Source: a virus. From it: DNA of 64,000 nucleotides. The notes below the pieces were generated by a model. That model was not told the DNA's origin, made no database searches, and was given only the letters and a program-made list of their open reading frames with translations. This document shows, piece after piece, positions 20,240-62,608 of the stretch (within the stretch, counting starts at the first letter, position 1; each line of letters begins with the position of its first letter). The stretch lies in the IMG/VR virus record IMGVR_UViG_3300045988_171964, one strand, 5' to 3'. Both the position numbers and the translations under genes were made by a program.

Positions 20240-20286
20240 CCTTAACCCCTTTGCGCCCCCGTTCCCAGCGATTCTATCGCTGGTTT
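20240..20286 (+). repeat. Hairpin element copy 1 (long form)
   Basis: ccttaacccctttgcgcccccgttc-CCAGCGAT-tct-ATCGCTGG. The stem-loop is at 20265-20283. Confidence 0.9.
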
Positions 20287-20379
20287 AACTCTCAAAAATA
20301 CAATATTTCGCTGAAAATATATACTCAAAAATACAATTTTTCTCGAAAATTATATAATAGATTAAAAAAATAAGGATTT

Positions 20380-20937
20380 ATGGAAAAAGAAAACAGACCT
20401 CACAACTATCTGAAGATAGCTGATGAGAGTGAGACAGGCAAGAAGCTGAAGGCATTTCTTGCTGAGTGTTGTGAAGCAAGCGAGAAGGCGAGAGCCTGGG
20501 CAGAGAAGCAGGGAGCCGATACCTACTACGAATCGCCCGAAGGCTTTGCAGGTGGTGTGGCGATGGTAGAGTTCAAAAACACGATCAGCAAGGAAGGCTG
20601 GACGAACATTCAGACTCCTACCAAGGACGGAATGCAGAGCACATCGCTCTTTATTCCAGAAGAAAACAGCGAACTGGAGAAGGAGATGATGGCACTGCCT
20701 ATCGTAAATGAAACGGCTCTTATCGCTATCCTGCAGTTCAAGCCTAAGATGGCGAAGGGTAAGGAAGGCAAGGAGGTGCAGCTTCCGTTCTCCTTTGGCA
20801 ATACAACGCCTATCCTCTTTCTGCATCATGGCTTCTTCTATACCGATGTGCCTTACGTGAGCACAAGCGAGGACTGCCAGGTTATCACGGAGAAGGAGTT
20901 CCTTCGTCGCAAGATGGCAGCAGTAAATGAGCATTAA
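20380..20937 (+). CDS. Hypothetical protein (185 aa)
   Basis: The plus-strand ORF has a protein-like composition. The overlapping minus-strand ORF is L/R/C-rich and looks like an antisense shadow. Confidence 0.65.
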   Translation: MEKENRPHNYLKIADESETGKKLKAFLAECCEASEKARAWAEKQGADTYYESPEGFAGGVAMVEFKNTISKEGWTNIQTPTKDGMQSTSLFIPEENSELEKEMMALPIVNETALIAILQFKPKMAKGKEGKEVQLPFSFGNTTPILFLHHGFFYTDVPYVSTSEDCQVITEKEFLRRKMAAVNEH

Positions 20938-21026
20938 TCATATTTCGTTCTTTATATTTTATATATATTTATTTTATATGTTTTATATGAGTTGATTCTA
21001 AAACGTAGTTTAAGCTGAAACATTCT

Positions 21027-21066
21027 CAGCCAGCCGTCCGTGATGGATAGCTGGCTGTTTTTATTT
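21027..21066 (+). terminator. Intrinsic terminator (hairpin plus T-tract) between convergent genes
   Basis: cagccagc-N15-gctggctg followed by tttttatttta. Confidence 0.7.
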
Positions 21067-21758
21067 TATTCCGTCTCGCGATGTATCTCTTCTGCCACCA
21101 TGCCGTAGCTAGGCTGTTGAGATTCCAGACGATGGGTGAGTTCGCTGATGAGCTTCTGCTGATCGCCTATCTGCTTCTGTTGTTCAGCAATAATATCGAG
21201 CATGCGGTTAAGGGTCTTCAAGCTGATGTCCGTTTCTGCTGCTGTAACCGGTTCCGTAATCGGAGTAGGCGCAGCAGCATCCATAGGCGCAGCGGCAGTC
21301 TCTTCCTTGTGCTCTTCCTTGCGTCCGAGCCTTAACCCCTTTGCGCCTCCGTTCCCAGCGTTTCCAACGCTGGTCCACCCAGGCACTACCGATTTCATCC
21401 TCTCCACATCGAGCGGATTGCGCAGCGCCCTCGTACCCTGTTTGCGCTTCTCTTCATTATCCAGATAGCCCCCATCGGGTTCAAATTGGTCATCTATACC
21501 AGGGCATACATACCCCTCCTCGCAGCAGCCTTCCCTTCCTTGCTGGTCCGCATCTACGATAAATGCCGAGAGCGGAACGTGAAACGCATTGCAGAATCGC
21601 AGCATGGCGATGGTAGGCAGCGGCGACTTCATTCTTATCCAGCTATCCAGGCACGCATTACTCGTAGTACCCATAGCCTTCATAATTTCTTTATTGGTGA
21701 TTTTGCTGTTTGCTTCCATCCATTTGTCTAGGAAGCTGTAATTGTAAAAGTACTTCAT
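21066..21758 (-). CDS. XRE/CI-like HTH transcriptional repressor candidate (230 aa)
   Basis: The N-terminal ITNKEIMKAMGTTSNACLDSWIRMKSPLPTIAMLRFCNAFHVPLSAFI is HTH_XRE-like. It is the only minus-strand gene in this region and is divergent from 21929..22423. The C-terminus is coiled-coil-like. Confidence 0.65.
   Translation of the reverse strand: MKYFYNYSFLDKWMEANSKITNKEIMKAMGTTSNACLDSWIRMKSPLPTIAMLRFCNAFHVPLSAFIVDADQQGREGCCEEGYVCPGIDDQFEPDGGYLDNEEKRKQGTRALRNPLDVERMKSVVPGWTSVGNAGNGGAKGLRLGRKEEHKEETAAAPMDAAAPTPITEPVTAAETDISLKTLNRMLDIIAEQQKQIGDQQKLISELTHRLESQQPSYGMVAEEIHRETE
21330..21378 (+). repeat. Hairpin element copy 2 (long form), embedded antisense inside the repressor gene
   Basis: ccttaacccctttgcgcctccgttc-CCAGCGTT-tcc-AACGCTGG-tcc. 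The stem-loop is at 21355-21373 and has a compensatory T/A change. Confidence 0.9.
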
Positions 21759-21894
21759 ATCTCAACTACATTTATAAGGTGAATAACTCTAATCTGTTCA
21801 TCTCGAAATCAATTAATATATGTAACCTATGTTAAATTCCCCTAATTTCTGAAAGAAAATATAGGTAACATTTGGTTGTTTCGATTTTAATCTT

Positions 21895-21902
21895 TAAATT
21901 TG
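21895..21902 (+). promoter_or_regulatory. Bacteroidota-type -7 box (TAAATTTG)
   Basis: ctttaaaTTTGcacc lies about 27 nt upstream of the ATG at 21929, in the divergent intergenic region. Confidence 0.5.
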
Positions 21903-21928
21903 CACCAAAATTAAGAAATAAAATCGAA

Positions 21929-22423
21929 ATGACAAAGGAAATTATAGAAAAAATCTGCAGAAAGAACTCTCCATTAGAGGTAAATGATATTTCTGTGGAG
22001 GAAAAGAAGAACTTAGCTGAGTTTTTATCGGATAATGGCTTCACAATCTCAACTTTCTATCTCCGTTTCTTTCAGAAAGGTTTCGACGCTTGGGAAATCC
22101 AAGGCATTAAAAACTGCAAAAAGCAGTTCTTAGCTATACCGGAAGTAGCTAACCTATTATCTGGGTATGTAGAGACCGATGCCCTGGGCAACGAGATTAG
22201 TAAGAAGGGATATTTGCTTGAGGCTGCTATGAGCGATGAGTCGGGTGTGTTCTACACCTGTCTGAAGAAGGCCAACAACGGTCTCTGCATGAAGTTCTTT
22301 GCCTTTATGGAGGAGCGAGGCATGAGCCGCACGACCATCATCAAGCGTTTTACCGCTGATGACTGGAAGCCATGGGAGCAGGAAGGAATTAAAGCACTCT
22401 TGCTTTTAAAGGTAAAAAAGTAA
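21929..22423 (+). CDS. Hypothetical protein (164 aa), first gene of the operon divergent from the repressor
   Basis: This internal ATG (MTKEIIEK) of track ORF 21872..22423 is placed after the -7 box. Confidence 0.6.
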   Translation: MTKEIIEKICRKNSPLEVNDISVEEKKNLAEFLSDNGFTISTFYLRFFQKGFDAWEIQGIKNCKKQFLAIPEVANLLSGYVETDALGNEISKKGYLLEAAMSDESGVFYTCLKKANNGLCMKFFAFMEERGMSRTTIIKRFTADDWKPWEQEGIKALLLLKVKK

Positions 22424-22436: not shown

Positions 22437-22449
22437 GTAACCATATATA

Positions 22450-23533: not shown

Positions 23534-24013
23534 AACATAAAGATATGAAGAAATAAAAGATATTCTGCATGACATCATCCAAATCCAACTTCGGTACGAT
23601 ACACTTCGTTTCCGATTTTTATTTTGTTAGACACCGAGCCATCGGTTAAAATGGCAGGAAGACCGGACGGGCGATAGGTGGACTTGGAAACATTCATCGC
23701 ATATCTCACACCCGCAGCTTCAAGAAGAAGGGGGATAGTCTGATTAAAAAGCCTGGGAACCCCATCGGACGGTATCTGCGGCATCCTCAGTTTTTTGCCA
23801 GTCGCCCGAAAGGTCTTCTTTCTTTGACAATATGATATAAAGAGAATAGGGGAGGCATTCTGGAAACACTCTTATGCAAGGGTAGTAGGAGTCAGTAATG
23901 CCCTACGACTACGATTCACTGCATCTTTGCAGCGGGCGAGTACCACAGATTTTCAAATGCTCCGACCGCTCGCTCTGGAATATAACCCGGCAAGATGTAA
24001 ACACTTGAAGTTT

Positions 24014-24057
24014 GGCCTACCCTTCGCCTCCGTTCCCAGCGATTCCATCGCTGGTCA
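24014..24057 (+). repeat. Hairpin element copy 3
   Basis: ggcctacccttcgcctccgttc-CCAGCGAT-tcc-ATCGCTGG-tc. The stem-loop is at 24036-24054, 60 nt upstream of the primase-helicase ATG. Confidence 0.9.
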
Positions 24058-24114
24058 ATGGTCAAGAGTGGTGCCTTCCCTTCTCTTTTAACTATAATAC
24101 TCTTACTGTAAGAT

Positions 24115-27100
24115 ATGTTATTCCACCCGATATTGAACCAGATTGCCAACCTTGACATGGCATTCCTCGTAAAACCTGCCGATGAGCAGCGCATCGAGGG
24201 ACAGACAGCCTGTTTCTGTCCCCTCTGCCAGAAGGAAGAGGCGGATGATGGCGAGCAGGGCAAAGCAAAGCAGACTCCTCACCTCATTATCTACAATAAT
24301 GAGCGAGGCGGTATGTATAACGGTGTAGGGGTGGAAGACAATTCTAAGGCAGAGCATGGTGCTCTGCGCTGGATGTGTACCAAGACCGGCAAGTATGGCT
24401 ATGGAGCCTTAGAGCTTTATGCTGCCATGCGCAAACTGCCGATGCACGGAGCCAGTCTGCTGCGTCTGTGCCATGACTTCATCGTGAGGGTGTATGGCGA
24501 TAACGAGAAGACGAGAGCCAAATGGCCGATGCTCTTTGCAAAAATGGACTATCGCACAATCGCTCCACAAACGATAGAAACTTTCTCATTTATGCCAAAA
24601 ACTGACTTCAACCCCCAGGAGCTCGCAGCCCTGGGGTGCGAAGTCACATCGGTTAAGGGAATCCCGCAATACGGCTTCGGCAAGGACTTTAACACCAAGA
24701 TGCTGAATGAAGATTTCCGCATCTATGCCGTGGACCAGGTAACGCTGCCCCACGTAGTGAGAAACGGACAACTGGTGAGTGAAATCATTTACGGCACACC
24801 CTGGAACCCGCTATTCGTCTGCTTCGCAACGGACGTAATAGCACCTCAAGGCAGTTGCGGATGCTTCTTCCGTCCAGCCATGCAGCAAGACCCTATCGTC
24901 TTCTCTACCTGTGAGGAACATAGCGTTAGGAAGGTGAGCAAGTGGCTGATGGGTGACAAGGTTTTCACCTATGCGATGGACCATCGGAGTAACAACTCTA
25001 CGGCCGTTCACTCGGCAATAGAAAAGTTGCAACCGGGAGAGGCTTACACCGAGACGAAAGAAATATGGGTAGAGAACGAAACCAAGGATGGTGAACCGAA
25101 AGGCACCTTCCATGTTGAGGAGGAACCTATAGAAGTAGGCGACATCAAAGCTCAGAACATCGTTTTCTGCCGGACCCCGGAAGATGCACTGAGTATTTAT
25201 TACGCCATGCGTTCCCTGCGTCAGGATAAGGCGCAGGATAAGCATTTTCAGAAATACTGCTGGTACCACGTAGCCTTCTCGCTAGGCAGAAGAAACTTCT
25301 GGTATATCGAGCGTGGGCAGTGGAGACAGGAAAAACTCGATTTCAATGCTGTTCAGTATCAGAAGATGAAGCGATTTGCCGAAAGGGTTATCATGATTTA
25401 CCCTAACGACATCGCCAGCCAAAGGGATTGCGGAGCCATCGCAACCAAGTATTGCGATATTTGTTATGCCACGCTGCCCGATGGCTTCAGAAGTAGATAT
25501 AATCAAAGGTGGAACTGGTTGTACGGTTGCTCTCCTCGCTCAGTGAGAGATTATCTGATGAGCTACCACATGGATGATACCGATAACTTCAAGTTCGACC
25601 ACGATATAAGGTTGCCGCTATATTCGAGATTGCGGGGTGCCAACAACACCGATCCATTCGAGATAGAATATCCCCGTGATCCGAGAAGCGGCAAACCTAA
25701 ACCGCCTACCTGCAAGGTATCGCCTACCAAGGTGTGGCTCTTTATGACCTGTCACGGCTATTACAGAATGATAGACCCTGAGAGTACCGACCTTGTAGGT
25801 CAGTATATCCATCTGGATAGATGTTTCGTAGAATACATCGACCAGAAGAGTATCATCCAAGCAACGAAAAACCAACTTCTGCAGTTTACTGAACAGAGTT
25901 GGCGGCATAATGATCAGGAGCGCAAGATGATGTCAGACTGCGCGAACCTGATAGACAAGAATTTCAGCGAGAAATCGGCTGGCGGCTTGCAGGGCATGGT
26001 GATAGACTTCACAGAAAGTTTCGATGCGCATACGGAATATTTCTTTTTCCGCAATGTAGCGTTGAAGATTACGCCCGAAACCATCATGCCAGTCAGCTAT
26101 GACCGCCTGAATTTCTTTATACCTGCCCTGGCTAAAAGACCGTATGATTTTACGATGAGGGTGTTCAATCCTCCGTTTGTTATCAGCGAGAGCCAGGAAT
26201 ACAAGGATAGGGTGGCAGTCATCGCCCAGCAGGAAGCTCAGACCAACGAAGACGGTTCGCCAGTCTTCACAAGAGCCGAAATCGACCAAAAAAAATCCGA
26301 GCTTAAAGATTGGGCGCAAACCTTCCGCTGGCAGGTGGATTGGAAAGGTAAGCAGGAGAAAGAGCTTTGGCCTATCCTGAGAGTGATTCGAGGCTGCTGC
26401 AATATGCAGTGGCGACTGGAGCAGGATTGCATCCGTAACAAAGAGCCAATGCCTGCCGAAGCTATCGCCGACATCGACTCCCATTTTGCCAACATGATTT
26501 CCTGTTTAGGAAGAATTTGTTATCGCTCATGGGCTGATATGCAGAGTATCTGTCCTTATCTTCTCGAAGATGAGGTGGAGGACGAGAAGCAGGCAAGTGG
26601 CGGTTCGGGTAAATCACTGATGATAGAACTTGTGGTAGGTTCAGCAGTCAATGTACTGCGCGTCGATATGAAAGATTTCCTGACGATTGCCGATGCAAAG
26701 TTCAGTCTTTCCGACCTGCTGATTTCTCCGGGTAAATATAGGGTAGTACATTGGGAAGATAAACCTTCGGGTTTCCCCATGAAGTACTTTTATAATAAGG
26801 TAACGGCGGGAGCCAAGGTAGAACGAAAGTTTGGTGACCCTATCGTCTTCAAGTTGGAAGAATCGCCAACGAACGTAATTTCCAGCAACTCGCAGTTGAG
26901 TGATGATGATGAGTCTACCATCGGCCGTTTTCCTTTGGTATCTTTCTCGGATAGGTTCTGTCGAGAAAATCCGATGCAGCATAAGCTGGCACGTTCCCCC
27001 AAGGAAGTGATGAAGAACCTCGTTAAGGAACCGGAGAATCTGAATGAGCGAGACCGCAATCAGGCGATATACATCTGTGCCCTTGCCGTTCAGTTTATCA

Positions 27101-27795
27101 TGCGCTATCATACTTTCGTGATTGCTCCTCAGAAAAACGTTCAGCGAAGACTGATGGTAAGAGAGCTGACCGAGAATACGGTGAACTACTTTGAGTGGTT
27201 CTTTAGCCGTAATGAGGTATATTCAGCGCCTATCTGTGCAGACGAAATGTTCAATGAGTTTATGCGAGATTGGGCTGATGCCAGTGAGGGCAAGAGTAAG
27301 GAGTACAGCCGAGCCACTTTCAAGAAGAAAATCAAGAAGTATTGCAAGAATATGAATATCATCTGCAATCCTGATAATCTCCTGATAGGTGAGGACAATA
27401 AACGCCATGGTTGTTTCAAGCTTCGAGCCTGGATAACGGAAGAATACTTCGTAGGGCGTGAATGGGAGAACGATGATAGTGTGGAGCCGAAGCATATCCG
27501 CAGAGTAAAGACGAGTAAGCACGTCTATTTCTTCTTCCGTAGCGGAAAGGATCATATTCCGGAAAGCTACGACGAGTTAAAGCGGATAGCGAAGGAATAC
27601 GTTGAAGGTCCCGACCCATTACCATACCGTGATGACGATGGCAACATTGTTATTCTCACCCCAGAAGAGGAAGAGCGATGGAAGACATTCACCTCCCGCA
27701 AGCAGGGCAGAAGGCAAGCTATACCGAACGCTAGCGATGGCAACAATGCCGCAGCTACCGTAGAGGAAATAGATAAGAGCGACCTGCCTTTTTAA
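24115..27795 (+). CDS. Primase-helicase (P4/D5-like SF3 helicase fusion), 1226 aa
   Basis: N-terminal Cys cluster CFCPLCQ, Walker A ASGGSGKS, and a Walker B-like YRVVHWED. Size and layout are typical of phage/plasmid primase-helicases. Confidence 0.75.
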   Translation: MLFHPILNQIANLDMAFLVKPADEQRIEGQTACFCPLCQKEEADDGEQGKAKQTPHLIIYNNERGGMYNGVGVEDNSKAEHGALRWMCTKTGKYGYGALELYAAMRKLPMHGASLLRLCHDFIVRVYGDNEKTRAKWPMLFAKMDYRTIAPQTIETFSFMPKTDFNPQELAALGCEVTSVKGIPQYGFGKDFNTKMLNEDFRIYAVDQVTLPHVVRNGQLVSEIIYGTPWNPLFVCFATDVIAPQGSCGCFFRPAMQQDPIVFSTCEEHSVRKVSKWLMGDKVFTYAMDHRSNNSTAVHSAIEKLQPGEAYTETKEIWVENETKDGEPKGTFHVEEEPIEVGDIKAQNIVFCRTPEDALSIYYAMRSLRQDKAQDKHFQKYCWYHVAFSLGRRNFWYIERGQWRQEKLDFNAVQYQKMKRFAERVIMIYPNDIASQRDCGAIATKYCDICYATLPDGFRSRYNQRWNWLYGCSPRSVRDYLMSYHMDDTDNFKFDHDIRLPLYSRLRGANNTDPFEIEYPRDPRSGKPKPPTCKVSPTKVWLFMTCHGYYRMIDPESTDLVGQYIHLDRCFVEYIDQKSIIQATKNQLLQFTEQSWRHNDQERKMMSDCANLIDKNFSEKSAGGLQGMVIDFTESFDAHTEYFFFRNVALKITPETIMPVSYDRLNFFIPALAKRPYDFTMRVFNPPFVISESQEYKDRVAVIAQQEAQTNEDGSPVFTRAEIDQKKSELKDWAQTFRWQVDWKGKQEKELWPILRVIRGCCNMQWRLEQDCIRNKEPMPAEAIADIDSHFANMISCLGRICYRSWADMQSICPYLLEDEVEDEKQASGGSGKSLMIELVVGSAVNVLRVDMKDFLTIADAKFSLSDLLISPGKYRVVHWEDKPSGFPMKYFYNKVTAGAKVERKFGDPIVFKLEESPTNVISSNSQLSDDDESTIGRFPLVSFSDRFCRENPMQHKLARSPKEVMKNLVKEPENLNERDRNQAIYICALAVQFIMRYHTFVIAPQKNVQRRLMVRELTENTVNYFEWFFSRNEVYSAPICADEMFNEFMRDWADASEGKSKEYSRATFKKKIKKYCKNMNIICNPDNLLIGEDNKRHGCFKLRAWITEEYFVGREWENDDSVEPKHIRRVKTSKHVYFFFRSGKDHIPESYDELKRIAKEYVEGPDPLPYRDDDGNIVILTPEEEERWKTFTSRKQGRRQAIPNASDGNNAAATVEEIDKSDLPF

Positions 27796-27829
27796 AGGTA
27801 AAAAGGTAAAAGGGTAAAAAGGTAAAAAG
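27796..27829 (+). repeat. (GGTAAAAA)-type octamer array, 4 units
   Basis: aggtaaaaaggtaaaagggtaaaaaggtaaaaag lies directly after the stop codon. Confidence 0.75.
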
Positions 27830-27830
27830 A

Positions 27831-27878
27831 ACCTTAACCCCTTTGCGCCTCCGTTCCCAGCGATTCTATCGCTGGTCC
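27831..27878 (+). repeat. Hairpin element copy 4 (long form)
   Basis: accttaacccctttgcgcctccgttc-CCAGCGAT-tct-ATCGCTGG-tcc. The stem-loop is at 27857-27875, 44 nt upstream of dnaN. Confidence 0.9.
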
Positions 27879-27918
27879 ATAAACAAGAAAATAGAATTTA
27901 CAAAAAAAATAAAGCAAA

Positions 27919-31417: not shown

Positions 31418-31903
31418 ATGAGAACATTAGAAGAATTTCAGAAAGAAGTCCTTGCGCCTTTGCGTAAGGAAAGAGACAAAAAGCACGAAGTTGCTTTGAA
31501 AATCAAGACCGATGGCGGCGAGGCCTTTGCGAAACGTAAGAAGGAACTCCTGGATAAAGAAGTTGAGTTCAAGGAACGTCAGAAATCCTGCCTGAAAGAG
31601 TTTCTCGGTAAGCAAACCTTGGAAAAGAAATCTTTCTTCGTTCAGCAAGATGCTGATCGTGCCGAAGCTCATGCCCAATATCAGAAAGCTACCCAAGACT
31701 ACAAGATTGCTAAACGCCGTGCTAACGAAGAGTTTATGGATAAGATAGGTATTGCTTATGCTGAGTATAACAAAGAGCGAGTAGCCGCAGGTGAGCAGCC
31801 TGTGTATTACGACAATCGCCGTGAGAAGTCAGCCGATGAACACAAGACGGGCTATGATGAATATGGTTGGCCAGAAGACCCAGCACAGGAGGCTGAAATA
31901 TGA
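31418..31903 (+). CDS. Hypothetical K/E-rich coiled-coil-like protein (161 aa)
   Basis: ORF in the operon. Confidence 0.6.
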   Translation: MRTLEEFQKEVLAPLRKERDKKHEVALKIKTDGGEAFAKRKKELLDKEVEFKERQKSCLKEFLGKQTLEKKSFFVQQDADRAEAHAQYQKATQDYKIAKRRANEEFMDKIGIAYAEYNKERVAAGEQPVYYDNRREKSADEHKTGYDEYGWPEDPAQEAEI

Positions 31904-31937
31904 GTTTCAGAAATACAAAATAAACAATTATAAAAAC

Positions 31938-32519
31938 ATGAACACGAAACAACAGAATATTCTTCGCTCATTACTGAAGAAATACAAGTTCAAGAGCGTA
32001 AGCAACATGGTTCGTCAGGCGCTCGGAATCAACTTCGAGAACTTCCTGCAGAAAACGGAACCTCTCTACATCATTCCTCGCATCGCTTCCTGCTATGCCG
32101 TGGAAGAGGATAAAGAGAAGCTGATGGGCATCGTCTATAAGGAATGGCTCAAGGACGTAGTAGAAAAAGCCTGGGTGAAACCGCTCAATGCCTACATCGA
32201 AGAATACGGCGAGCGCATCGTGCTTTCTGCTATCTACTATCTCATCGACAACGGTCTGTGGGAAGTATACGAAGGTCGCCTTGCACTCGACGCACAGGAA
32301 GATAATTACTACGATAAGTTGGGAGATATGCCTTCCGCTATCGAATTTGTGCAGGAACAGCAAGCTGAGGAAAAGAGGGCAGAAGAAAAGAAAGCTGCAG
32401 AGGAAGCCGCCACAAAGAAAGAAGCCGCCCAACAGCAAGCCTCTGCCTCGTCACGTCCCTCTCTCGTCCCCGTTCCCAGCGATTCAATCGCTGGTCTCAA
32501 GAAAAATCATTTAAAGTAA
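31938..32519 (+). CDS. Hypothetical protein (193 aa) whose C-terminus is encoded by hairpin element copy 5
   Basis: This internal ATG (MNTKQQNIL) of track ORF 31791..32519 lies after the upstream stop. The C-terminal LVPVPSDSIAGLK is translated from the element. Confidence 0.6.
   Translation: MNTKQQNILRSLLKKYKFKSVSNMVRQALGINFENFLQKTEPLYIIPRIASCYAVEEDKEKLMGIVYKEWLKDVVEKAWVKPLNAYIEEYGERIVLSAIYYLIDNGLWEVYEGRLALDAQEDNYYDKLGDMPSAIEFVQEQQAEEKRAEEKKAAEEAATKKEAAQQQASASSRPSLVPVPSDSIAGLKKNHLK
32465..32497 (+). repeat. Hairpin element copy 5 (inside a coding 3' end, sense orientation)
   Basis: cgtccccgttc-CCAGCGAT-tca-ATCGCTGG-tct. The stem-loop is at 32476-32494. Confidence 0.85.
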
Positions 32520-34425: not shown

Positions 34426-34683
34426 ATGACGTTAGAGTTATCGACGGAGGAAAAGATCATCGTAACCATGCTTTGGGTATTTGCGATATTCTTCCTGGTG
34501 TTGGTTTCCGGAATATTTGAAGGTGGGCATGAGCCTATAAAGCCGCCGAATATCCCGCCACCGCCGCCTCCATCTCGCCCTCATCCTCTGCTATTCCGTC
34601 GCAGATTAAGAGTAAGAACTAAAAAACGAAGAAGATATGTTGTACGAAGCAAAACAAGGAACAAAGACTTACGAATACATTAA
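34426..34683 (+). CDS. Small membrane protein with a Pro-rich and basic tail (85 aa)
   Basis: TM segment IIVTMLWVFAIFFLVLVSGIF followed by PPNIPPPPPPSRP. It overlaps the next gene by 47 nt. Confidence 0.45.
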   Translation: MTLELSTEEKIIVTMLWVFAIFFLVLVSGIFEGGHEPIKPPNIPPPPPPSRPHPLLFRRRLRVRTKKRRRYVVRSKTRNKDLRIH

Positions 34684-44602: not shown

Positions 44603-44968
44603 ATGATACAGATTCAAGATTGGGAGTCATCCAAAAAGATTGTTGTCGTGGATGAAAATCATCACGGCACCGTACAGGTGGAGGTACCGAAGCCTGGACC
44701 TTATAAAGACGAGTATTATCAGTATGCCGATTGCGCTATCTACAACCTTTGGGTAGATGAGAAGTACCGCAAGCAGGGAACGGCTCGCCTCCTGATGGAG
44801 ACCGCAGAGCGGGAAGCTAAGAAACTGGGCTGCAAGTCGGCACAGCTGGAATGGGATGATAAAGGCAGTAAGCTTTTCGTTCTCGAATGGTATAAACGCC
44901 TTGGCTATCGTGTAATGGCAAGGAATGAAAACGATCGTCTGCTGCTGGTGAAGAAACTTCAATGTTGA
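44603..44968 (+). CDS. GNAT-family N-acetyltransferase (121 aa; alternative start 44570)
   Basis: LWVDEKYRKQGTARLLMETAEREAKKLGC...LEWYKRLGY is a typical GNAT motif A region. Confidence 0.65.
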   Translation: MIQIQDWESSKKIVVVDENHHGTVQVEVPKPGPYKDEYYQYADCAIYNLWVDEKYRKQGTARLLMETAEREAKKLGCKSAQLEWDDKGSKLFVLEWYKRLGYRVMARNENDRLLLVKKLQC

Positions 44969-45051
44969 GTGTTGAATGTTGAGTGTTGATTTAGTCTAGC
45001 GCCCTTGAGCCCGTCAGGCAATTCAACATTCAACACTCAACATTCAACATT
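44960..45051. repeat. Inverted pair of (TGTTGAR)4 / (YTCAACA)4 heptamer arrays forming a long hairpin
   Basis: caatgttgagtgttgaatgttgagtgttgatt at 44960-44992 faces aattcaacattcaacactcaacattcaacatt at 45020-45051. The loop is about 27 nt. Confidence 0.85.
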
Positions 45052-45090
45052 AAAAAGGTTTTTGTCCCAGACATAAAAACCTTTTTTCTT
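45052..45090 (+). terminator. Intrinsic terminator
   Basis: aaaaaggttttt-N11-aaaaacctttttt followed by ctt. Confidence 0.65.
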
Positions 45091-45603: not shown

Positions 45604-45875
45604 ATTCTTCTAATGTTTTGTCAGATATATTTTATAAGTTAAACGATTATTTTTTACTTATCGAAAATCGCTTAGTTTCCTTCGTTGTGAAACGCGGGGT
45701 TCTAATTTCTTCATTAATTCTAATGTGTGTGTAAAGAATAGATTCTTCTAATGTTTTATCACAATATGCTAAACGTATTTAGTTACAATTATTTTATTCA
45801 AAATTATGAGTTGTTAAAGTTTATCTTGGTTCCTTCGTTGTGAAACGCGGGAGCTTTTTATTCTTCGTTAATTAG
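45604..45875. repeat. Two copies of a direct repeat (offset about 140-150 bp) in the convergent intergenic region next to terL
   Basis: attcttctaatgtttt at 45604 and 45742. ttccttcgttgtgaaacgcggg at 45677 and 45830. ttcttc(a/g)ttaatt at 45706 and 45862. Confidence 0.75.
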
Positions 45876-45910: not shown

Positions 45911-45943
45911 GAGGGGCGGCTGTCGCGTTGACATCCGCCCCTC
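45911..45943 (-). terminator. GC hairpin downstream of terL
   Basis: gaggggcgg-N15-ccgcccctc. It follows the heptamer array at 45952-45979 in the terL transcription direction. Confidence 0.5.
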
Positions 45944-45951
45944 ATTCCTAA

Positions 45952-45979
45952 TTCAACATTCAACATTCAGCATTCAACA
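45952..45979 (-). repeat. (TGTTGAA)4 heptamer array (read on the minus strand) immediately after the terL stop
   Basis: The plus strand reads ttcaaca ttcaaca ttcagca ttcaaca. Confidence 0.8.
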
Positions 45980-45984
45980 TTTAG

Positions 45985-48718: not shown

Positions 48719-49489
48719 TTAAAATAGACTAGGCTGCATCATTTCTAATTTGATGCGCTTACAAGCCTTGTCGTAATATTCTTTGTTTAATTCAAATCCG
48801 ATGAAGTTTCTCTTTTCTCTGATGCAGGCGATTGCGGTAGTGCCGCTGCCCATGCAATTATCGAGAACGCACCCCCCCACATTGGTATAAGTACATATAA
48901 GATACTGGATAAGGGCGACTGGCTTTTGCGTAGGGTGGAAGGTATCGGCAGAATGTTCTTTATCAAAGCAGATAATGCTCTTTGGGAATTTTTCATCTGA
49001 TACGATAGTAGGCACTTCTTTATGGTCGCCATAACAACCTCGCTTCAAACTATGAGAGCCATCTCCCCTTCGATGATTCCTTTGATGTGGCGCACATTTT
49101 ACCATTTGAGGATTGTAGACAGGTTGTTTTCGATAAAATACTGCAATATCCTCATGTGAGCGCAGAGGCATCTTGTTGGCATTCAGAAAGCCTGTTACCC
49201 GCTGCTTGCTCCAAATAAGATTATATTTCCAGAGTTTCGACTGCGACATCATAAGCTGTGCGGTAAACATGCCCTGGCAGAAAAGAATAATGGCTGCATT
49301 TGGTTTGGTTATGCGCAGATATTCTTTCCATAATGGCTCAAGCGGGATAATGCTATCCCAGCCACCGCCTTCACTCTGTTTGTTGAGAACGCCATAAGGC
49401 AAATCGCAGATAATGCAATCCACGCTTGCGTCCGGAATCTTTTTCATTCCTACCAGACAATCCTCATTATATATCTTATTTAATTCCAT
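48719..49489 (-). CDS. DNA methyltransferase, beta-class, motif IV variant DLPY (256 aa)
   Basis: MELNKIYNEDCLVGMKKIP...DCIICDLPYGV...DNCMGSGTTAIACIREKRNFIGFELNKEYY. The start is chosen at the MELNK Met shared with the paralog. Confidence 0.8.
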   Translation of the reverse strand: MELNKIYNEDCLVGMKKIPDASVDCIICDLPYGVLNKQSEGGGWDSIIPLEPLWKEYLRITKPNAAIILFCQGMFTAQLMMSQSKLWKYNLIWSKQRVTGFLNANKMPLRSHEDIAVFYRKQPVYNPQMVKCAPHQRNHRRGDGSHSLKRGCYGDHKEVPTIVSDEKFPKSIICFDKEHSADTFHPTQKPVALIQYLICTYTNVGGCVLDNCMGSGTTAIACIREKRNFIGFELNKEYYDKACKRIKLEMMQPSLF

Positions 49490-49503
49490 TATAATTATAT
49501 GTT

Positions 49504-50202
49504 TTAGAATAGGCTCGGCTGCATCATTTCTAACTGAATGCGCTTGCAAGCCTTGTCGTAATATTCTTTATTCAGTTCAAAGCCGATGAAGTTCCGCTTT
49601 TCCTTGATGCAGGCGATAGCGGTAGTACCGCTGCCCATAAAAGGATCGAGGACGGTATCACCTTTCAGACTCGAATTGATGATATGTTTTTGAAAGAATG
49701 GTGTTGGCTTTATGGTTGGATGATTCCAAAGATTTTTCTCTGAAGTGTTGAGTGGAGTAATGAAATACGTTCCTTTGGTACTCGTATCACCATAAATACG
49801 AACTCCTTTTTCTCGGAAGAACAAACAATACTCAGTATCAGTAATATATTTATTGCCGCACGCAGGTATCGGGTTTGTCTTGTGCCAAGTAATCAGATTC
49901 CAGTTACAGCCTTTCTCTTTTACAAAGTAATCAAGATATAGAGGAATCTGTTTTTGGCTACACCAAAGATAGATATTTATCTTTTTCATAACCCTGCAGC
50001 ATTCATCTAAAATCTTTAAATCGAATCCGCTCTTTATCTCATCCAGCTCTTTTACATAGCCTTTATCGTCATGGGCGTAAATACCCCCCCCAGAATTGTC
50101 TATAATATAAGGAGGATCACTAACTATTAAGTCGATAGCCTTGGAAGGAATCTTTTTCATTCCTGCCAGGCAATCCTCATTATAAATCTTATTTAATTCC
50201 AT
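49504..50202 (-). CDS. DNA methyltransferase, beta-class, motif IV DPPY (232 aa)
   Basis: MELNKIYNEDCLAGMKKIP...DLIVSDPPYII...DPFMGSGTTAIACIKEKRNFIGFELNKEYY. Confidence 0.85.
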   Translation of the reverse strand: MELNKIYNEDCLAGMKKIPSKAIDLIVSDPPYIIDNSGGGIYAHDDKGYVKELDEIKSGFDLKILDECCRVMKKINIYLWCSQKQIPLYLDYFVKEKGCNWNLITWHKTNPIPACGNKYITDTEYCLFFREKGVRIYGDTSTKGTYFITPLNTSEKNLWNHPTIKPTPFFQKHIINSSLKGDTVLDPFMGSGTTAIACIKEKRNFIGFELNKEYYDKACKRIQLEMMQPSLF

Positions 50203-50229
50203 TCTCTATAAACTATTAACTGTAAACTA

Positions 50230-50463
50230 TTAACTCTTTACTCTCCCCACATGCCATTTCTGGCAAGTCTTGCATTGGTACGCCACATACCCTTGCGCCT
50301 TCAGCTCCGGTCTTTGGTTCAGAAACTCCCAGGCAGCATCCTCTGTTTCGTATGCCACCTTCGCCTTCCAGGTATGCTGTTTTCGGGTGTAATGTTCGGG
50401 GTCCGGTGTAAAGGGAGGAACCTTATTGTGATAATGATGATCACCTTTGCGCTTACTCATCAT
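50230..50463 (-). CDS. Small zinc-ribbon-like protein (77 aa)
   Basis: MMSKRKGDHHYH...YQCKTCQKWHVG. Its start overlaps the stop of the upstream gene (ATGATGAGTAA). Confidence 0.5.
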   Translation of the reverse strand: MMSKRKGDHHYHNKVPPFTPDPEHYTRKQHTWKAKVAYETEDAAWEFLNQRPELKAQGYVAYQCKTCQKWHVGRVKS

Positions 50464-51265
50464 CGCCTCCTTCCTTTTCGGTATCACCTTCCTCTTCCGG
50501 AATATCCATTTCGGCTTCCTTCTTCTCAGCATGTTCATCCAGCACCTCTTCCATATACTCCATATAGTCAGGTACCTTTTCATTATGCTCCTGCAGACTT
50601 TCCTCCTCGGCAATATCCTGCATATCCTTAGCAGTAAGACCATACTTGCGAGCCATTTTTTTCTTGTACTCGTCAGTATAGTTCACCCTATCACGCTTCA
50701 CGATGCTTACATCCTGCGTGATGGCAATGCGGCTCATATCCGGCATTTCCTCGGTAGCATCCTTCTCTTCTAGGAAGTTGCCATAAACGGTAGCCAATGC
50801 CTGCATACCCTTATCCACCGCACGGTCGTTGTTCTGCTGCTTGCCCGTACGGATAAGCCACTCAGCAGAATTGAGATACATCGCCTTGTGACGAGGGCTT
50901 TCATCGGTCATAAAAAAGCGAATAATGTGGTTGCAGACCGCCACATCGTTTGTCAGCTCGGTAATGGTACGGGGTTTGATATTTCCTTCGTCGTCAATAT
51001 CAATATGCAGCGCCATCACCATTTCCTGCGCCTCCCTGTTGCCCTGTCCTGCCTGTTTCATAAACAGCGCGTAGTCGCGTCTTGCTATGTTGCGGCAGGT
51101 AGTCTTGGGGTCTATATCGTTGTTTTGTACCCAGCGCTTGTAGAACTCGTAGCAGAGCTGCATCCTATACTTCTGTTCCAGTTTTGGAAACATCGTGTCG
51201 ATACTCAGTCCATTTGATAGCCATTTGTCTATACGTTGCAGGGTATTCTGCGTAAGTTGACTCAT
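50453..51265 (-). CDS. Hypothetical protein with an acidic C-terminal tail (270 aa); a small-terminase role is possible but unsupported
   Basis: Clean ORF in the operon that contains terL. No diagnostic motif was seen. Confidence 0.65.
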   Translation of the reverse strand: MSQLTQNTLQRIDKWLSNGLSIDTMFPKLEQKYRMQLCYEFYKRWVQNNDIDPKTTCRNIARRDYALFMKQAGQGNREAQEMVMALHIDIDDEGNIKPRTITELTNDVAVCNHIIRFFMTDESPRHKAMYLNSAEWLIRTGKQQNNDRAVDKGMQALATVYGNFLEEKDATEEMPDMSRIAITQDVSIVKRDRVNYTDEYKKKMARKYGLTAKDMQDIAEEESLQEHNEKVPDYMEYMEEVLDEHAEKKEAEMDIPEEEGDTEKEGGDDE

Positions 51266-51370
51266 CTCTTATTAATGTTTAATGTTTAATGTTAACCTGG
51301 TGGGGCATCGAAAACCGAAATTCGTGCTATTCGTGTCATTCGTGTTCAAACTCCCCGAACCCCCGAAACG

Positions 51371-52223
51371 CTATATGGTAAGGTCGATACCAAACTGACC
51401 TTCCAGGAACTTCTTGTAATCGGGCTTACCGAATAGCGGTCCGTTCACCTTATTCCACTCCTTATTATTAGAATAGAACACATCACGTGTGAACCATTCA
51501 TATACGCTATCGTAGCGTTTCAGCGCCGTGCAGTTAGGATGCGTATTTAAGTACTTCTGTCCGGCACGCAGATAAGCCTTCGCTATGCGGGGATGCTTCT
51601 GAAACTCGATAAGGCGCTTGCGTCTGGAAGCCAGAGGACAGCACATGCAGCCGAGTCTTCGAGTAACGTTGATTTGCCCCCCCCGTATCATAGTAGAGTG
51701 GAGCCAGCTTCAAGTCTCTATCAAGAATGAAATCCCTTACGTCTTCATCAGTCCACTCTAAGATAGGGTAAATCTGCTCCACATGGTTCTCTTCTTTCTT
51801 TGCACCAAAATATCGGCACTCGGTAGGCTCGTTATATCTTTCTTTTCTCGCTCTGCTTTCCGCTTTGCGCACACCGATAATGGTTTTATCGAGTACCTTA
51901 TACTCTTTCAGAGCCTCACAGCAGAAACGGGAGAAGCGAGAAGGAAATCCCTTCTTGGCGATAAGCTGAAAGAAATTCTCTTTAGGTCTGAGAATTTCCA
52001 CGCCCATCTCCTTCACGTGGGCGATAGTGCCAGGTGGGTCGATGGTGGTGTTCTTGTATATCGCCCTGTATCTGATACCGGCTTCCTTTGCAAGTTGAAG
52101 GATCACGTCGCTATCTTTGCCGCCCGAATAAGCCAGTTCTATCTCTCCATCGTACCTTTTCTGTACGCTTTGCAGGAGTCGGATAGACTGATCTATCTTT
52201 TTCTGTAATTGCTCGTTTATCAT
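51371..52223 (-). pseudogene. PAPS-reductase-family (PP-loop) gene interrupted by a frameshift at an 8-nt homopolymer
   Basis: The N-terminal ORF 51534..52223 carries AYSGGKDSDV. The C-terminal ORF 51371..51691 carries RRLGCMCCPL. The two frames overlap and switch at C8 (plus strand) 51677-51684. Confidence 0.75.
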
Positions 52224-52320
52224 TTTGCGCCTTTTTAATTTCTTTATTTGCCCACAAAATTACGAAATCGCCCCTAAATGATTGGGACAACCCCCGAACC
52301 CCCTTATCTCGAAATAACAC

Positions 52321-52358
52321 CCCTCTCGCCCCGTCCCCAGCGATTCCATCGCAGGTCC
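52321..52358 (+). repeat. Hairpin element copy 6 (degenerate)
   Basis: ccctctcgccccgtcc-CCAGCGAT-tcc-ATCGCAGG-tcc. The stem-loop is at 52337-52355 with one mismatch. Confidence 0.8.
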
Positions 52359-52396
52359 CTCAATCCTTTTGTCCCCATCTCTCAATAAAAAACCGA

Positions 52397-53721: not shown

Positions 53722-53724
53722 GCC

Positions 53725-60628: not shown

Positions 60629-60630
60629 AG

Positions 60631-60658
60631 TGTTGAACGTTGAGTGTTAAATGTTGAA
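60631..60658 (+). repeat. (TGTTGAA)4 heptamer array
   Basis: tgttgaa cgttgag tgttaaa tgttgaa. Confidence 0.8.
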
Positions 60659-60667
60659 TTAGGCTAT

Positions 60668-60709
60668 CGCCTTTGGGTCTCCGTTCCCAGCGAATTTTTC
60701 GCTGGTCCC
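60668..60709 (+). repeat. Hairpin element copy 7
   Basis: cgcctttgggtctccgttc-CCAGCGAA-ttt-TTCGCTGG-tccc. The stem-loop is at 60687-60705 and has a compensatory A/T change. Confidence 0.9.
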
Positions 60710-60770
60710 ATTTTGTAATAAAGCTAATATTTTTCCGTACCAACGTTAACCCTTTGATTTAGTGGGCATT

Positions 60771-61263
60771 TTGGTCTCAAAAGCATATCTTGGTCTCATT
60801 TTTCGTCGGTTTTACTACCTATATATAAAATTTTCCGTGTATTTTTTCTTTTCCCTAAAATCAAAATCCCCTAACCTCAAACTAGGAGTTAGTAGCATTA
60901 ACGGCTATGCCGTAAACTTCAGACAATAAGGTAGTTATGGGGATATAGGGGAGTGGCAGCTAGCGAGAGAAATGCGTGATTTTCTACATATATTCTACAT
61001 ATTTCTGAAATATTTTGTATCTCCTGCGTACATCTGTTTATAGAAAATTATATAAAAATGAGACCAAGATATAGTAAGTTGCTGAAAAATAAGCAGATAG
61101 TAAAAAATCAGTGTGGGCTAGCAGTGGGACAATGGTGTGGCAGCAGGGGGACAATATACGCCGTTTTAGCAATTAGGGGACTTTAACATTTCTGCTAATA
61201 AAATTAAAATGAGACCAGAATCGGCAAAATGGGACCAGATTTCGCTTCCTGGTCTCATTTTTG
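60771..61263. repeat. Six dispersed YTGGTCYCATTTT boxes in both orientations (candidate protein-binding sites or second origin)
   Basis: Forward copies lie at 60771-60780, 60789-60803 and 61249-61263. Reverse copies lie at 61054-61070, 61206-61220 and 61226-61240. Confidence 0.75.
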
Positions 61264-61270
61264 AAAAAAC

Positions 61271-61312
61271 AACCTTTGCGTCTCCGTTCCCAGCGATTCC
61301 ATCGTTGGTTCC
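61271..61312 (+). repeat. Hairpin element copy 8
   Basis: aacctttgcgtctccgttc-CCAGCGAT-tcc-ATCGTTGG-ttcc. The stem-loop is at 61290-61308 with a G-T pair on the plus strand. A C8 run follows. Confidence 0.85.
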
Positions 61313-61401
61313 CCCCCCTCTCAAACCTATATTAAATGTTAAAAATATAACTTATTTCAAATATAATATAGCTTACCTATACTTTATTCGATTTATTTTT
61401 G

Positions 61402-61409
61402 TATCTTTG
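61402..61409 (+). promoter_or_regulatory. Bacteroidota-type -7 box (TATCTTTG)
   Basis: tgtatcTTTGcagcg lies about 35 nt upstream of the ATG at 61444. Confidence 0.55.
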
Positions 61410-61443
61410 CAGCGAAAAATGAACAATATAATATATGTAAGGT

Positions 61444-62571
61444 ATGTTTGAGGAGATATGTTCCATCTATCGGGATGCGAAAGATGCACTCGGAAGATAC
61501 GTCGATATGGAGACGGGCGAGTGCATCACGCAGATGTCTATCCGTGAGTTCTGTCTTACGGATAGATGGAAGCCGTATGTAGAGAAGCTGAGAGCCATGC
61601 GGCAGCAGTATGGTAGCAAGGCGAAGAAGATGCCGGAGTATATCGAAACCAAGAAGATGCTTCCAGGTGCCACACTGAGCGGTCTCTTCGCTACCTACGA
61701 GGACGATAGCCTTACCCATCCCGGCCAGCGTGTGATGGTTTCCAGAAGAGAAAGCCACCTTCAGCAGCATACCGGATGGCTGGCGATAGATATTGACCTT
61801 CAGGACAACGAGGGTATTGCCGATTTCGAGAATATCCGCAGGGTGTTGGCATTTCGCCCCGAAGTAGCCCTGCTGATGCGCTCCTGCTCCGGAACTGGAC
61901 TGTTTGGCTTGGTCCGTCTGGCTTATCCAGACCATCATAAAGAGCAGTTCAAGGCATTATTGCATGAATATGCTGCAATGGGTATCATGCTCGATGGCTC
62001 CTGCGGAAACATCGGACGCGTGCGCTTTGCCTCATGGGATGATCCTGCGCATATATATATTAATGAACGCGCGATTCCATATACCAAACTGCCCGATAAC
62101 GTACCTACACCAATGCCCGTGATGAACTATGCCAACACATATTTCAGTGGCAGCCATCCGACTGGTGTTGGCTATGGAGGCAGCTATCCGCATAGCGGAC
62201 AGGGCACCTACAGACGGGACACACCGGAAATCATCTATCGCAAAGCTTTGCGCCTTGTTGAGAAGATAGAGGCTCAAGGCATTGATATTTGTGCCGGAAA
62301 GGATGCTAATAGCGGTTATCTGGGTTGGGTGAAATGCGGCATGTCGCTTTACCATGTGGATAGAACGGCGGGTTATGACCTATGGAGAAGAGTTTCCCGC
62401 TTCCGTCCTGCTGACTCTACCTGCGGCCACAATGAAATGGATTTCCGCAAGCGATGGAACCAGTTCGCTAATTACAACAAGATTTCTGAGGCAACTTTCT
62501 TCGACTACTGCAAGCGGTCGGGCATCTTCCTCACCAGGGAAGACTGGAAAGAGATATATCAGAATACTTAG
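61444..62571 (+). CDS. VirE/BT4734-like N-terminal domain protein (primase-like), 375 aa
   Basis: KKMLPGATLSGLF...HTGWLAIDIDL matches the pattern of the BT4734/VirE_N family, recalled from memory and not searched. Confidence 0.6.
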   Translation: MFEEICSIYRDAKDALGRYVDMETGECITQMSIREFCLTDRWKPYVEKLRAMRQQYGSKAKKMPEYIETKKMLPGATLSGLFATYEDDSLTHPGQRVMVSRRESHLQQHTGWLAIDIDLQDNEGIADFENIRRVLAFRPEVALLMRSCSGTGLFGLVRLAYPDHHKEQFKALLHEYAAMGIMLDGSCGNIGRVRFASWDDPAHIYINERAIPYTKLPDNVPTPMPVMNYANTYFSGSHPTGVGYGGSYPHSGQGTYRRDTPEIIYRKALRLVEKIEAQGIDICAGKDANSGYLGWVKCGMSLYHVDRTAGYDLWRRVSRFRPADSTCGHNEMDFRKRWNQFANYNKISEATFFDYCKRSGIFLTREDWKEIYQNT

Positions 62572-62574
62572 AAA

Positions 62575-62608
62575 GCGCCTCCGTTCCCAGCGATTCTACC
62601 GCTGGTCC
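62575..62608 (+). repeat. Hairpin element copy 9 (short form)
   Basis: gcgcctccgttc-CCAGCGAT-tct-ACCGCTGG-tcc. The stem-loop is at 62587-62605 with one A-C mismatch. Confidence 0.85.

Follow-up and report, generated by a model that had tools for sequence, protein, structure and literature searches.

Short palindromes that fold into stem-loops can be found in several bacterial and phage systems, the closest to the present case being the repetitive extragenic palindromic sequences (REPs) of enterobacteria with their mosaic arrangements (bacterial interspersed mosaic elements, BIMEs), the REPINs of Pseudomonas and the Rickettsia palindromic elements (RPEs). The element treated here is a hairpin of which nine copies lie, in a single orientation, between positions 20,240 and 62,608 of a 64,000-nucleotide stretch of viral DNA (IMG/VR record IMGVR_UViG_3300045988_171964; the whole stretch is called the window below). 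It is probably a REP- or RPE-like interspersed palindrome common to the gut bacterium Segatella (Prevotella) copri and its phages, acting as a portable recombination patch and perhaps also as an intercistronic RNA hairpin. Like REPs and REPINs, it is an imperfect palindrome, short (about 33 nt) and able to fold into a stable stem-loop; as in the REP/BIME family, it is dispersed in many host copies, mostly intergenic and often located just after stop codons, which occur singly or in inverted pairs and in mosaics with other motifs and terminators, and which are plausible both as mRNA 3' barriers and as recombination substrates. The GT(A/G)G head of REPs is absent from the consensus of the element, and no gene for a REP-associated tyrosine transposase (RAYT) was found with an approximate query in 1.9 Mb of sampled loci. 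Unlike REPs and BIMEs, the element is strongly biased toward the sense orientation, lies in frame within open reading frames (ORFs) and abounds in phage genomes. To our knowledge, REPs and REPINs have been described as largely absent from mobile elements. Moreover, the hosts of REPs and BIMEs are proteobacterial, whereas that of the element is a species of Bacteroidota.

RPEs resemble the element in being found in frame within protein-coding genes as well as between genes, and in being open in most reading frames, but they are longer (about 100-150 nt against about 33-50 nt) and have not been reported in phages, whereas the element is mostly intergenic. They are mentioned among the prokaryotic elements that resemble miniature inverted-repeat transposable elements (PMC10969869). 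In T4-type phages, the early promoter-stem-loop motifs (PeSLs) flank genes as co-oriented stem-loops and, like the element, lie at the boundaries of insertions, deletions and replacements; recombination between their copies has been proposed to shuffle modules (PMC2839356; PMC4122927). PeSLs are phage-specific and combine an early promoter with a terminator-like stem-loop, while the element has neither a -33/-7 promoter nor a host start site and is shared with the chromosome. The attC sites of integrons are likewise co-oriented hairpins that separate single genes in arrays, with modules lying between two sites. They possess RYYYAAC/GTTRRRY cores and extrahelical bases, need IntI and conserve structure rather than sequence; in contrast, the element is near-invariant in sequence and lacks those cores, and no integrase was identified, no integrase search having been made. 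Finally, the early hairpin promoters of phage N4 and the boxB of lambda share with the element a short G+C-rich stem, a 3-nt loop, conserved flanks and an orientation with transcription, but they need a dedicated phage protein (virion RNA polymerase or N) at a few phage-specific sites, whereas the element is numerous, present on the host chromosome and found in ORFs.

A search of the whole window for CCAGCGWW-NNN-WWCGCTGG with at most one mismatch returned exactly nine matches, all on the plus strand, against a chance expectation of 0.01 (100 shuffles); the hairpins start at 20265, 21355, 24036, 27857, 32476, 52337, 60687, 61290 and 62587. A covariance model built from these copies (R1) and run over the window with filters off agrees with the pattern search, only the nine copies scoring 55-71 bits, and the set of co-oriented hairpins listed in the initial annotation is thereby recovered. 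Once aligned, the copies display a conserved core of about 33 nt, namely GCC-N-CCGTTC, the hairpin CCAGCGAT-TCN-ATCGCTGG and a TCC tail, in which an 8-bp G+C-rich stem carries a 3-nt loop (TCY) and is followed by TCC(CC). In the full form, heptad/octad arrays of the GGTAAAR or TGTTGAR type precede the C-rich 5' arm (..GCC-N-CCGTTC) and are able to pair with it into a second hairpin. The main hairpin forms in every predicted fold and is predicted to be stable. As previously noted, the longer 5' arm CCTTAACCCCTTTGCGCC is common to copies 20265, 21355 and 27857, the inner pair is compensated in two copies (GTT/AAC at 21355, GAA/TTC at 60687), and all copies point the same way regardless of gene direction, copy 21355 being plus-oriented within a minus-strand gene. 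It had also been claimed that a single copy harbors a G-T pair tolerated on the plus strand only. This argument fails because three stems are imperfect: 61290 has a G.T pair, 62587 an A.C mismatch, which is G.T on the minus strand, and 52337 an A.A mismatch.

The distribution of the element in bacteria carries most weight for its nature. The exact 25-nt core is found at at least 120 loci of the bacterial genome collection, essentially all of them S. copri or Prevotella sp., among which are the complete S. copri chromosomes HDD04 (at least seven separate loci), HDD05 and G8, and also H-2632. The few core matches in metagenome-assembled genomes (MAGs) labelled otherwise are probably mis-binned, their flanks reading as typical S. 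copri sequence. A repeat family scattered in this way over the host chromosome was what the initial annotation had itself set against its interpretation of the hairpin as a phage signal, and that interpretation is largely refuted by it. Host copies can possess the full arm of window copies 20265 and 27857, i.e., (GGTAAAR)n-GAGCC-TTAACCCCTTTGCGCC-CCGTTC-hairpin-TCCCC, and the 90-nt unit 27790-27880 has matches with 76-95% identity at dozens of places on S. copri chromosomes. The 5' arm with TGTTGAR heptads can be found in window copy 60687, in one viral relative (L069) and at four host loci (L154, L148, L166 and L170). One host copy (L131) lies directly after a gene stop and about 40 nt before the start codon of a product beginning MADILEEIVAHKRIEIEQRK, which we take to be a putative trpC-like protein. 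That all chromosomal matches lie inside prophages or integrated copies of these phages is unlikely, because copies are found beside this putative trpC-like neighbor and inside genes for a CcsBA-like and an M6-peptidase-like protein. Regarding other collections, a 13-kb region of the window has no near match among GenBank phages, while a 55-nt form of the element has one unannotated match in phages and none in PLSDB plasmids.

Other intergenic repeats of the window are shared with the host as well. Long near-perfect palindromes at 19111-19221, composed of (AAAGGTAA)n/(TTTTACTT)n, and at 44955-45056 (also 45943-45981), composed of (TGTTGAG)n/(ATTCAAC)n, match many S. copri loci; those at 19111-19221 and 44955-45056 look like host-type bidirectional terminators, and the same arrays serve as the alternative 5' arms of the element. 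A structured intergenic repeat of about 95 nt at 14165-14262 (GCCCTTACAGGGC...GCCCCTTCAGGGC) matches about 15 S. copri loci with 78-86% identity in both orientations and appears to be a separate host-shared repeat family. The whole intergenic repeat vocabulary, beyond the hairpin element, is common to phage and host.

Copies inside coding sequences can be found in phages and in the host. In the window, copy 2 lies antisense and in frame, within a low-complexity linker, in the minus-strand gene 21066-21758 (230 aa), where it encodes ..PGWTSVGNAGNGGAKG... Relatives with as little as 52% amino-acid identity retain this ORF in full length, and it is a real gene because its amino-acid conservation exceeds that of any overlapping plus-strand ORF. 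The antisense translation of copy 21355 is TSVGNAGNGG where relatives carry the canonical TSDGIAG; the element-coded segment is kept in the 120 closest database homologues and is missing from the 52%-identical homologue in L106, the most distant one. Copy 5 is read in the sense direction as PVPSDSIAG at the 3' end of the plus-strand gene 31791-32519 (..LVPVPSDSIAG-LKKNHLK*), for which an internal ATG is the probable true start, given that relatives open with MNTKQQNIL... The copy is a truncation point at which a C-terminal domain of about 185 aa has been lost, the homologue running about 185 residues past the element in eight relatives. A second, unrelated phage protein family (about 367 aa) has the identical PVPSDSIAG from the same element DNA. 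In the host, the element lies between the two domains of a ResB/CcsA cytochrome-c assembly protein (CcsBA-like), read in another frame as HRSQRFYRW, and in the third frame of an M6-peptidase-like protein as PFPAIPSLV. As in RPEs, the element is inserted in coding frames, here in all three sense frames and in antisense. The seven distances to start codons given in the initial annotation (32-135 nt from hairpin to ATG, at 20380, 24115, 27919, 32527, 52449, 61444 and 62652) are right, but copy 21355 is intragenic and copy 32476 sits at the 3' end of a gene. A signal tied to a downstream start codon is unlikely because copies sit inside genes, in several frames and in both orientations.

With regard to the stem, the earlier claim that pairing rather than sequence alone is preserved is borne out by compensated changes of several types. 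The model-based alignment of 122 distinct copies has 99% of stem cells paired, with 31 compensated cells. Because the model-based set was selected for pairing, covariation was retested on copies recognised solely by their 5' flank and left arm; of 45 left-arm substitutions, about 29 were accompanied by a Watson-Crick change in the right arm. Among the compensated variants are CGAGCG/CGCTCG, CAAGCG/CGCTTG, CCTGCG/CGCAGG, GTT/AAC and GAA/TTC. A converse retest anchored on the right arm was set aside, its 11-nt anchor being too loose and returning mostly random sequence. Relatives of copy 52337 harbor the fully compensated form CCTGCGAT..ATCGCAGG, of which the window copy is a half-way state. To judge from these substitutions, pairing of the stem is under selection. 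Among 348 unique copies, sense-strand G.T (13) and A.C (12) reveal no strand asymmetry, and three copies exhibit a flipped loop (GGA), the signature of a palindrome at the DNA level. It could be argued that such a site is recognised as duplex DNA, being a palindromic operator to which a dimeric protein of host or phage binds, with a genome-wide co-orientation like that of mycobacteriophage stoperators. The extreme conservation of the stem sequence, the mismatches without strand asymmetry and the asymmetric conserved flanks, which give the site a direction, would suit an operator. However, symmetric double substitutions coexist with the canonical form in one genome (CAAGCG/CGCTTG and CCAGCG/CGCTGG in HDD04), which fits pairing and not recognition of one half-site sequence, and host copies are numerous, located at unrelated genes and inside ORFs. 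An operator is, all in all, a very improbable explanation.

The orientation of the element follows the genes in the host. After orthologous sites were collapsed, 46 distinct sites were retained among the matches listed, most of them intergenic. Unpaired intergenic copies lie between co-directional genes at 24 sites in the sense and at 3 in the antisense direction, between convergent genes at 4 and between divergent genes at 1. Host copies are single or form inverted pairs, head-to-head and tail-to-tail, 60-90 nt apart, and they combine with (GGTAAAR)n or (TGTTGAR)n arrays and with intrinsic terminators, which the inverted pairs flank. Thus, at L194 each of two convergent genes is followed by a sense copy, and then comes an intrinsic terminator that is bidirectional and shared by both; at L160 an intrinsic terminator follows the copy, on both sides of which 'GGTAAAAAGAGC' recurs; and at L211 two copies arranged head-to-head separate a terminator from a canonical promoter. 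Host copies can be found in either orientation, and the few in HDD04 reveal no replichore pattern. In viral contigs, where the exact 25-nt core is found at at least 119 loci from many human-gut contigs of 50-110 kb, a single copy orientation is displayed by 62 of 62 multi-copy loci, and in relatives the orientation stays the same across at least 70 kb of a genome of 98 kb. Phage gene arrays follow a regular pattern of ORF stop, 14-40 nt, element, about 40 nt and ATG.

These facts can also be read as a host functional RNA signal adopted by phages and repeated by selection, whether an mRNA-stabilising barrier, an RNase site or a Rho/rut-like attenuator; this explanation overlaps with the preferred one, whose RNA half it promotes to the main role. 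The host bias of 24 sense against 3 antisense copies, the single orientation in all multi-copy phage loci, the position of the core 14-40 nt past stops and about 40 nt ahead of the next ATG, the arrangement at L194 and a hairpin predicted to be stable in every fold all point toward it, and the C-rich, G-poor flanks resemble, in our reading, Rho-loading sequences. Yet G.U and A.C mismatches are tolerated alike, ORF copies can be found in three sense frames and in antisense, and the L211 pair lies in an apparently untranscribed spacer between terminator and promoter. Furthermore, a barrier needs no such invariance of stem, loop and flank sequence, and no small RNA or 3'-derived RNA is annotated at the HDD04 sites checked. 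As the principal role of the element, an RNA signal is conceivable but on the unlikely side.

The initial annotation had proposed a phage-specific N4-type hairpin promoter, a nut/boxB-like antitermination site or a single-strand initiation (ssi) signal for phage primases. In support, seven of the nine copies precede plus-strand starts, several of them of replication genes, the loop has 3 nt as in N4 early promoters, and the window encodes a BT4734/PriCT_2 primase together with a Walker-A protein. Of the two primase-type proteins then invoked, that at 61444 is indeed a BT4734/PriCT_2 primase, while for that at 24115 the designation finds no confirmation beyond a Walker A motif. Against these readings stand the many host chromosomal sites of the same element, the copies within coding sequence and the host start sites. 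In the differential RNA sequencing (dRNA-seq) table of S. copri HDD04 (Table S1A, bioRxiv 10.1101/2024.04.05.588293; +2 offset relative to RefSeq, verified on two genes), no start site falls at the element at the seven loci checked, and the single one nearby (1824471) lies 62 nt downstream of the element behind a canonical TAnnTTTG box. The S. copri promoter has been described as -7 TAnnTTTCA and -33 AAAnnTTTGG (bioRxiv 10.1101/2024.04.05.588293). On inspection of the sequence, the Bacteroidota -33 TTTG / -7 TAnnTTTG motifs are absent in register with the element, and sigma-54 and extracytoplasmic function (ECF)-like readings of the minus strand mismatch with conserved positions.

An N4-type promoter would also call for an RNA polymerase, and none was seen among the large proteins of the window (23 kb of the phage genome lie outside it), the 2072-aa protein being a tape measure and the 1226-aa protein having no RNA polymerase match. 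Regarding lambda nut/boxB, nine copies dispersed over 42 kb are far above the number of nut sites in a genome, the element sits at unrelated host genes, and no companion box occurs at a fixed distance; across 214 unique copies, in which the 33-nt core is near 2 bits per position, no conserved motif was found at a fixed distance downstream. Promoter, antitermination and priming roles specific to the phage are thus not supported, and such a signal is scarcely credible as the identity of the element. An intrinsic terminator was discarded too, since the 3' flank is TCC(CC) and then A-rich without a U-tract; true terminators with A/T tracts adjoin some copies. Regarding replication direction, GC skew in the window tracks gene orientation, and the nine copies are all located on the right-hand side of the iteron origin (17.2-17.7 kb). 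The element had not been recognised as a described family in the initial annotation; the whole window has no Rfam match at gathering thresholds, a permissive scan of copy 27857 gave chance-level hits only, a literature search for the exact hairpin sequence returned no paper, and no description of the repeat family was found in the library searched. Likewise, nothing relevant was found in the literature on RAYTs or repeat elements in Prevotella, and there are no tRNA or tmRNA genes in the window.

In phages, the element occupies the joints of genome mosaics. R1 gave 175 matches in the first 80 viral loci, and the closest relative among those retrieved is an 87-kb IMG/VR contig, of which locus L001 is 97% identical. 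When the window was compared with the viral loci by blastn and endpoints caused by locus ends were excluded, 35 of 219 homology endpoints were located within the nine zones of 85 nt that surround the copies, where about 3 would be expected, a 12-fold enrichment; 12 ends of high-scoring segment pairs (HSPs) lie at copy 27857 and 11 at copy 32476. Two-copy and one-copy states can be compared, as would suit a linker of the PeSL type. In L079, a first copy has the left flank of the window and is followed by the in-frame C-terminal domain of the homologue of gene 31791-32519, and a second copy about 1.9 kb further is followed by the right flank of the window. The window has at 32476 a single copy, with the loop of the second copy of L079. 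Since flanks and loop match, a deletion between direct copies can be reconstructed, in which 1.9 kb were lost and the gene was truncated. Three relatives (L065, L069 and L087) possess an extra ORF of about 250 nt directly 3' of the copy-27857 hairpin, one of them with the other type of 5' arm, and L069 and L087 have, at the place of copy 20265, the same flanking genes with a different palindromic intergenic element. The extra ORF, which the window lacks, encodes a Cys-rich product of about 80 aa (MAKKEETKKKGIRVANRQAWVDTFVYLCPQHRGG...) and is located at about 4200-4450 on the minus strand of L065 and at about 8375-8625 in L069.

Such arrays raise the question of active movement. Y1 transposases (IS608/REP-RAYT) recognise a conserved hairpin plus conserved flanking bases, and the element has this anatomy. 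It could then be an active non-autonomous element, moved as single-stranded DNA by a hairpin-recognising enzyme of host or phage, either a RAYT/IS200-IS605-like HUH transposase or a tyrosine recombinase as for integron attC, whose strand-specific insertion would yield the single orientation in phages, with the phage arrays being cassette arrays. One orientation per phage genome, including the copy in a minus-strand gene, the gene-by-gene punctuation of arrays with modules bounded by two copies, the flipped-loop GGA variants, the inverted pairs and the ORF insertions in all frames are in line with such movement. Conversely, no Y1 transposase or integrase was found beside copies in the sampled loci (no search aimed at integrases was made), and there is no GTAG-type tetranucleotide, attC R'/R'' core site or target duplication. 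In addition, host orientation follows the genes, the few HDD04 copies lack a replichore pattern, and the antisense-in-gene phage copies go back almost entirely to a single inherited event. Active movement of this kind is doubtful. Quite improbable, too, is the bolder view that the element is the site of a strand-specific, hairpin-dependent recombination or transposition system which shuttles between S. copri and its phages and builds integron-like cassette arrays; if true, the co-oriented copies would not be passive patches of homology, and gene shuffling would take place actively at these joints.

The preferred reading, that of a shared interspersed palindrome, can be formulated as follows. 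In phages, the element would mainly be a portable identity patch of 30-50 bp for homologous or hairpin-assisted recombination, by which gene modules would be exchanged, inserted and deleted. The transcribed hairpin would probably be an intercistronic or 3' barrier protecting upstream mRNA, as are the REPs of E. coli; both the sense bias and the location 14-40 nt past stop codons would follow from such a barrier. New copies could arise either through transposition by a hairpin-binding enzyme or through copying by recombination. Several points weigh against this reading. The enrichment of endpoints is by itself no proof of crossover inside the element, which only the L079 case provides, and part of it would arise with any intergenic motif that the genomes share, since alignments run on through such a motif. 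No target-site duplication or clean empty site was seen, the relatives that differ at 20265 carrying another element instead. A mover enzyme was sought by tblastn with an approximate IS608 TnpA query in the 1.9 Mb of sampled loci and gave no match, which is a weak test. The near-invariant stem, loop and flanks suggest recognition by a specific protein. Regarding the RNA half, single mismatches of the G.U and A.C types are equally frequent (13 and 12) and show no sign of selection on the sense RNA specifically.

The nine copies, all on the plus strand, differ in their arms, loops and surroundings. Copy 1 (20211-20287; hairpin 20265-20283, loop TCT, tail TTT; 67.2 bits with R1) begins with a (AAAAGTAA)n heptad/octad array at 20211-20239, followed by the long arm and the core CCGTTC; it is intergenic, 28 nt past the stop of 19895-20212 and 96 nt ahead of ATG 20380. 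Between this hairpin and ATG 20380, two tandem 33-nt direct repeats at 20291-20356 (CTCAAAAATACAATATTTCGCTGAAAATATATA) may be a regulator binding site or promoter region. Copy 2 (21330-21377; hairpin 21355-21373; 68.5 bits) has the long 5' arm and a stem with a compensated inner pair, CCAGCGTT-TCC-AACGCTGG. Copy 3 (24011-24058; hairpin 24036-24054, loop TCC; 59.9 bits) has a divergent 5' arm and lies 60 nt ahead of ATG 24115 of the 1226-aa Walker-A protein, with HSP endpoints at -14, -12 and +28 relative to the hairpin. The most complete one is copy 4 (27794-27879; hairpin 27857-27875, loop TCT, tail TCC; 71.3 bits), in which a (AAAGGTAA)x4.5 array at 27794-27829 precedes the long 5' arm, between the stop of the 1226-aa gene (27795) and ATG 27919 of the beta sliding clamp. 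Copy 5 (32451-32498; hairpin 32476-32494, loop TCA; 57.6 bits) ends the truncated gene described above, 32 nt ahead of ATG 32527.

Copy 6 (52312-52359; hairpin 52337-52355; 54.8 bits) owes its A.A mismatch to the uncompensated right-arm change ATCGCAGG and is located between the divergent genes 51534-52223 (minus) and 52449 (plus), with HSP endpoints at +25. Copy 7 (60629-60709; hairpin 60687-60705; 59.7 bits) exhibits a TGTTGAR/TGTTAAA heptad-type 5' arm at 60629-60657, then TTAGGCTATCGCCTTTGGGTCT, and a stem with a compensated inner pair, CCAGCGAA-TTT-TTCGCTGG; it lies about 130 nt past the stop of the tape-measure gene at 60533. Copy 8 (61265-61312; hairpin 61290-61308; 61.5 bits) has its G.T pair in ATCGTTGG and is found 135 nt ahead of ATG 61444, the start of the BT4734-like/PriCT_2 primase gene. 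Copy 9 (62562-62609; hairpin 62587-62605; 56.5 bits) has its A.C mismatch in ACCGCTGG; its core begins right after the primase stop codon 62569-62571, 46 nt ahead of ATG 62652, and HSP endpoints fall at -11 and +31. A weak R1 candidate of 12.6 bits at 34562-34609, inside a small proline-rich ORF, has letters (TCTGCTATTCCGTCGCAGA) that resemble the variant CCTGCGAT-TCC-ATCGCAGG and may be a decayed tenth copy.

The proteins of the window include a 2072-aa tape measure, a beta sliding clamp, a BT4734/PriCT_2 primase, an exonuclease, two DNA methyltransferases, a PAPS-reductase-like protein, a ParA-like protein and a Rep3-like initiator. Sequence comparison with Pfam, PHROG and PDB gave no match for the 1226-aa protein (24115-27795), which carries a CxxC motif at its N-terminus and SGGSGKS as its Walker A motif. 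Its conservation extends to relatives and to a contig of a Prevotella MAG (L184, with 88% identity at the nucleotide level), and the protein is probably a primase-helicase of a novel kind. Eight copies of a 22-bp iteron (GTACCAAAGGGTATAGTTTTCG) at 17245-17704 lie directly upstream of the Rep3-like gene 17829-19112, with the ParA-like partition gene (15830-16702) 1 kb upstream of the iterons; together they look like a plasmid-type replication and partition module in a tailed-phage genome, which is possibly a phage-plasmid of S. copri. A centromere-like (parS) region may be represented by the dense short A/T-rich tandem repeats at 15348-15607 (ATTTCCAC x5, 16-28-nt units), which lie shortly before the ParA-like gene. 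A C-rich 127-nt tandem repeat made of two 64-nt half-units is present in 3.2 perfect copies at 1-411 and runs off the start of the window. Perfect 22-nt direct repeats (TTCCTTCGTTGTGAAACGCGGG) at 45677-45698 and 45830-45851, 153 nt apart and each beside a repeated 20-mer, lie in a non-coding gap of 400 nt at which the genes change direction. The block 48719-52223, the only one with genes on the minus strand, comprises two adjacent paralogous DNA methyltransferases and the PAPS-reductase-like protein, has no element copy and may be a DNA-modification or anti-restriction module.

S. copri is among the most abundant human gut bacteria, and its non-coding DNA is little known. The repeat family described here links its chromosome with a large set of uncultured gut phage genomes of 56-110 kb, and the exact core, found almost only in S. 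copri/Prevotella assemblies among the matches listed, can serve as a marker for host assignment. In practical terms, the host genome is worth searching for any conserved hairpin of a phage before a regulatory role in the phage is assigned to it. The repeat also offers an explanation for a fine-scale mosaicism of these phages in which genes are swapped, inserted, deleted and truncated at the element. A dense, strictly oriented REP-like element in phage genomes is unusual, and it provides a tractable test of selfish versus regulatory versus recombination roles for such palindromes.

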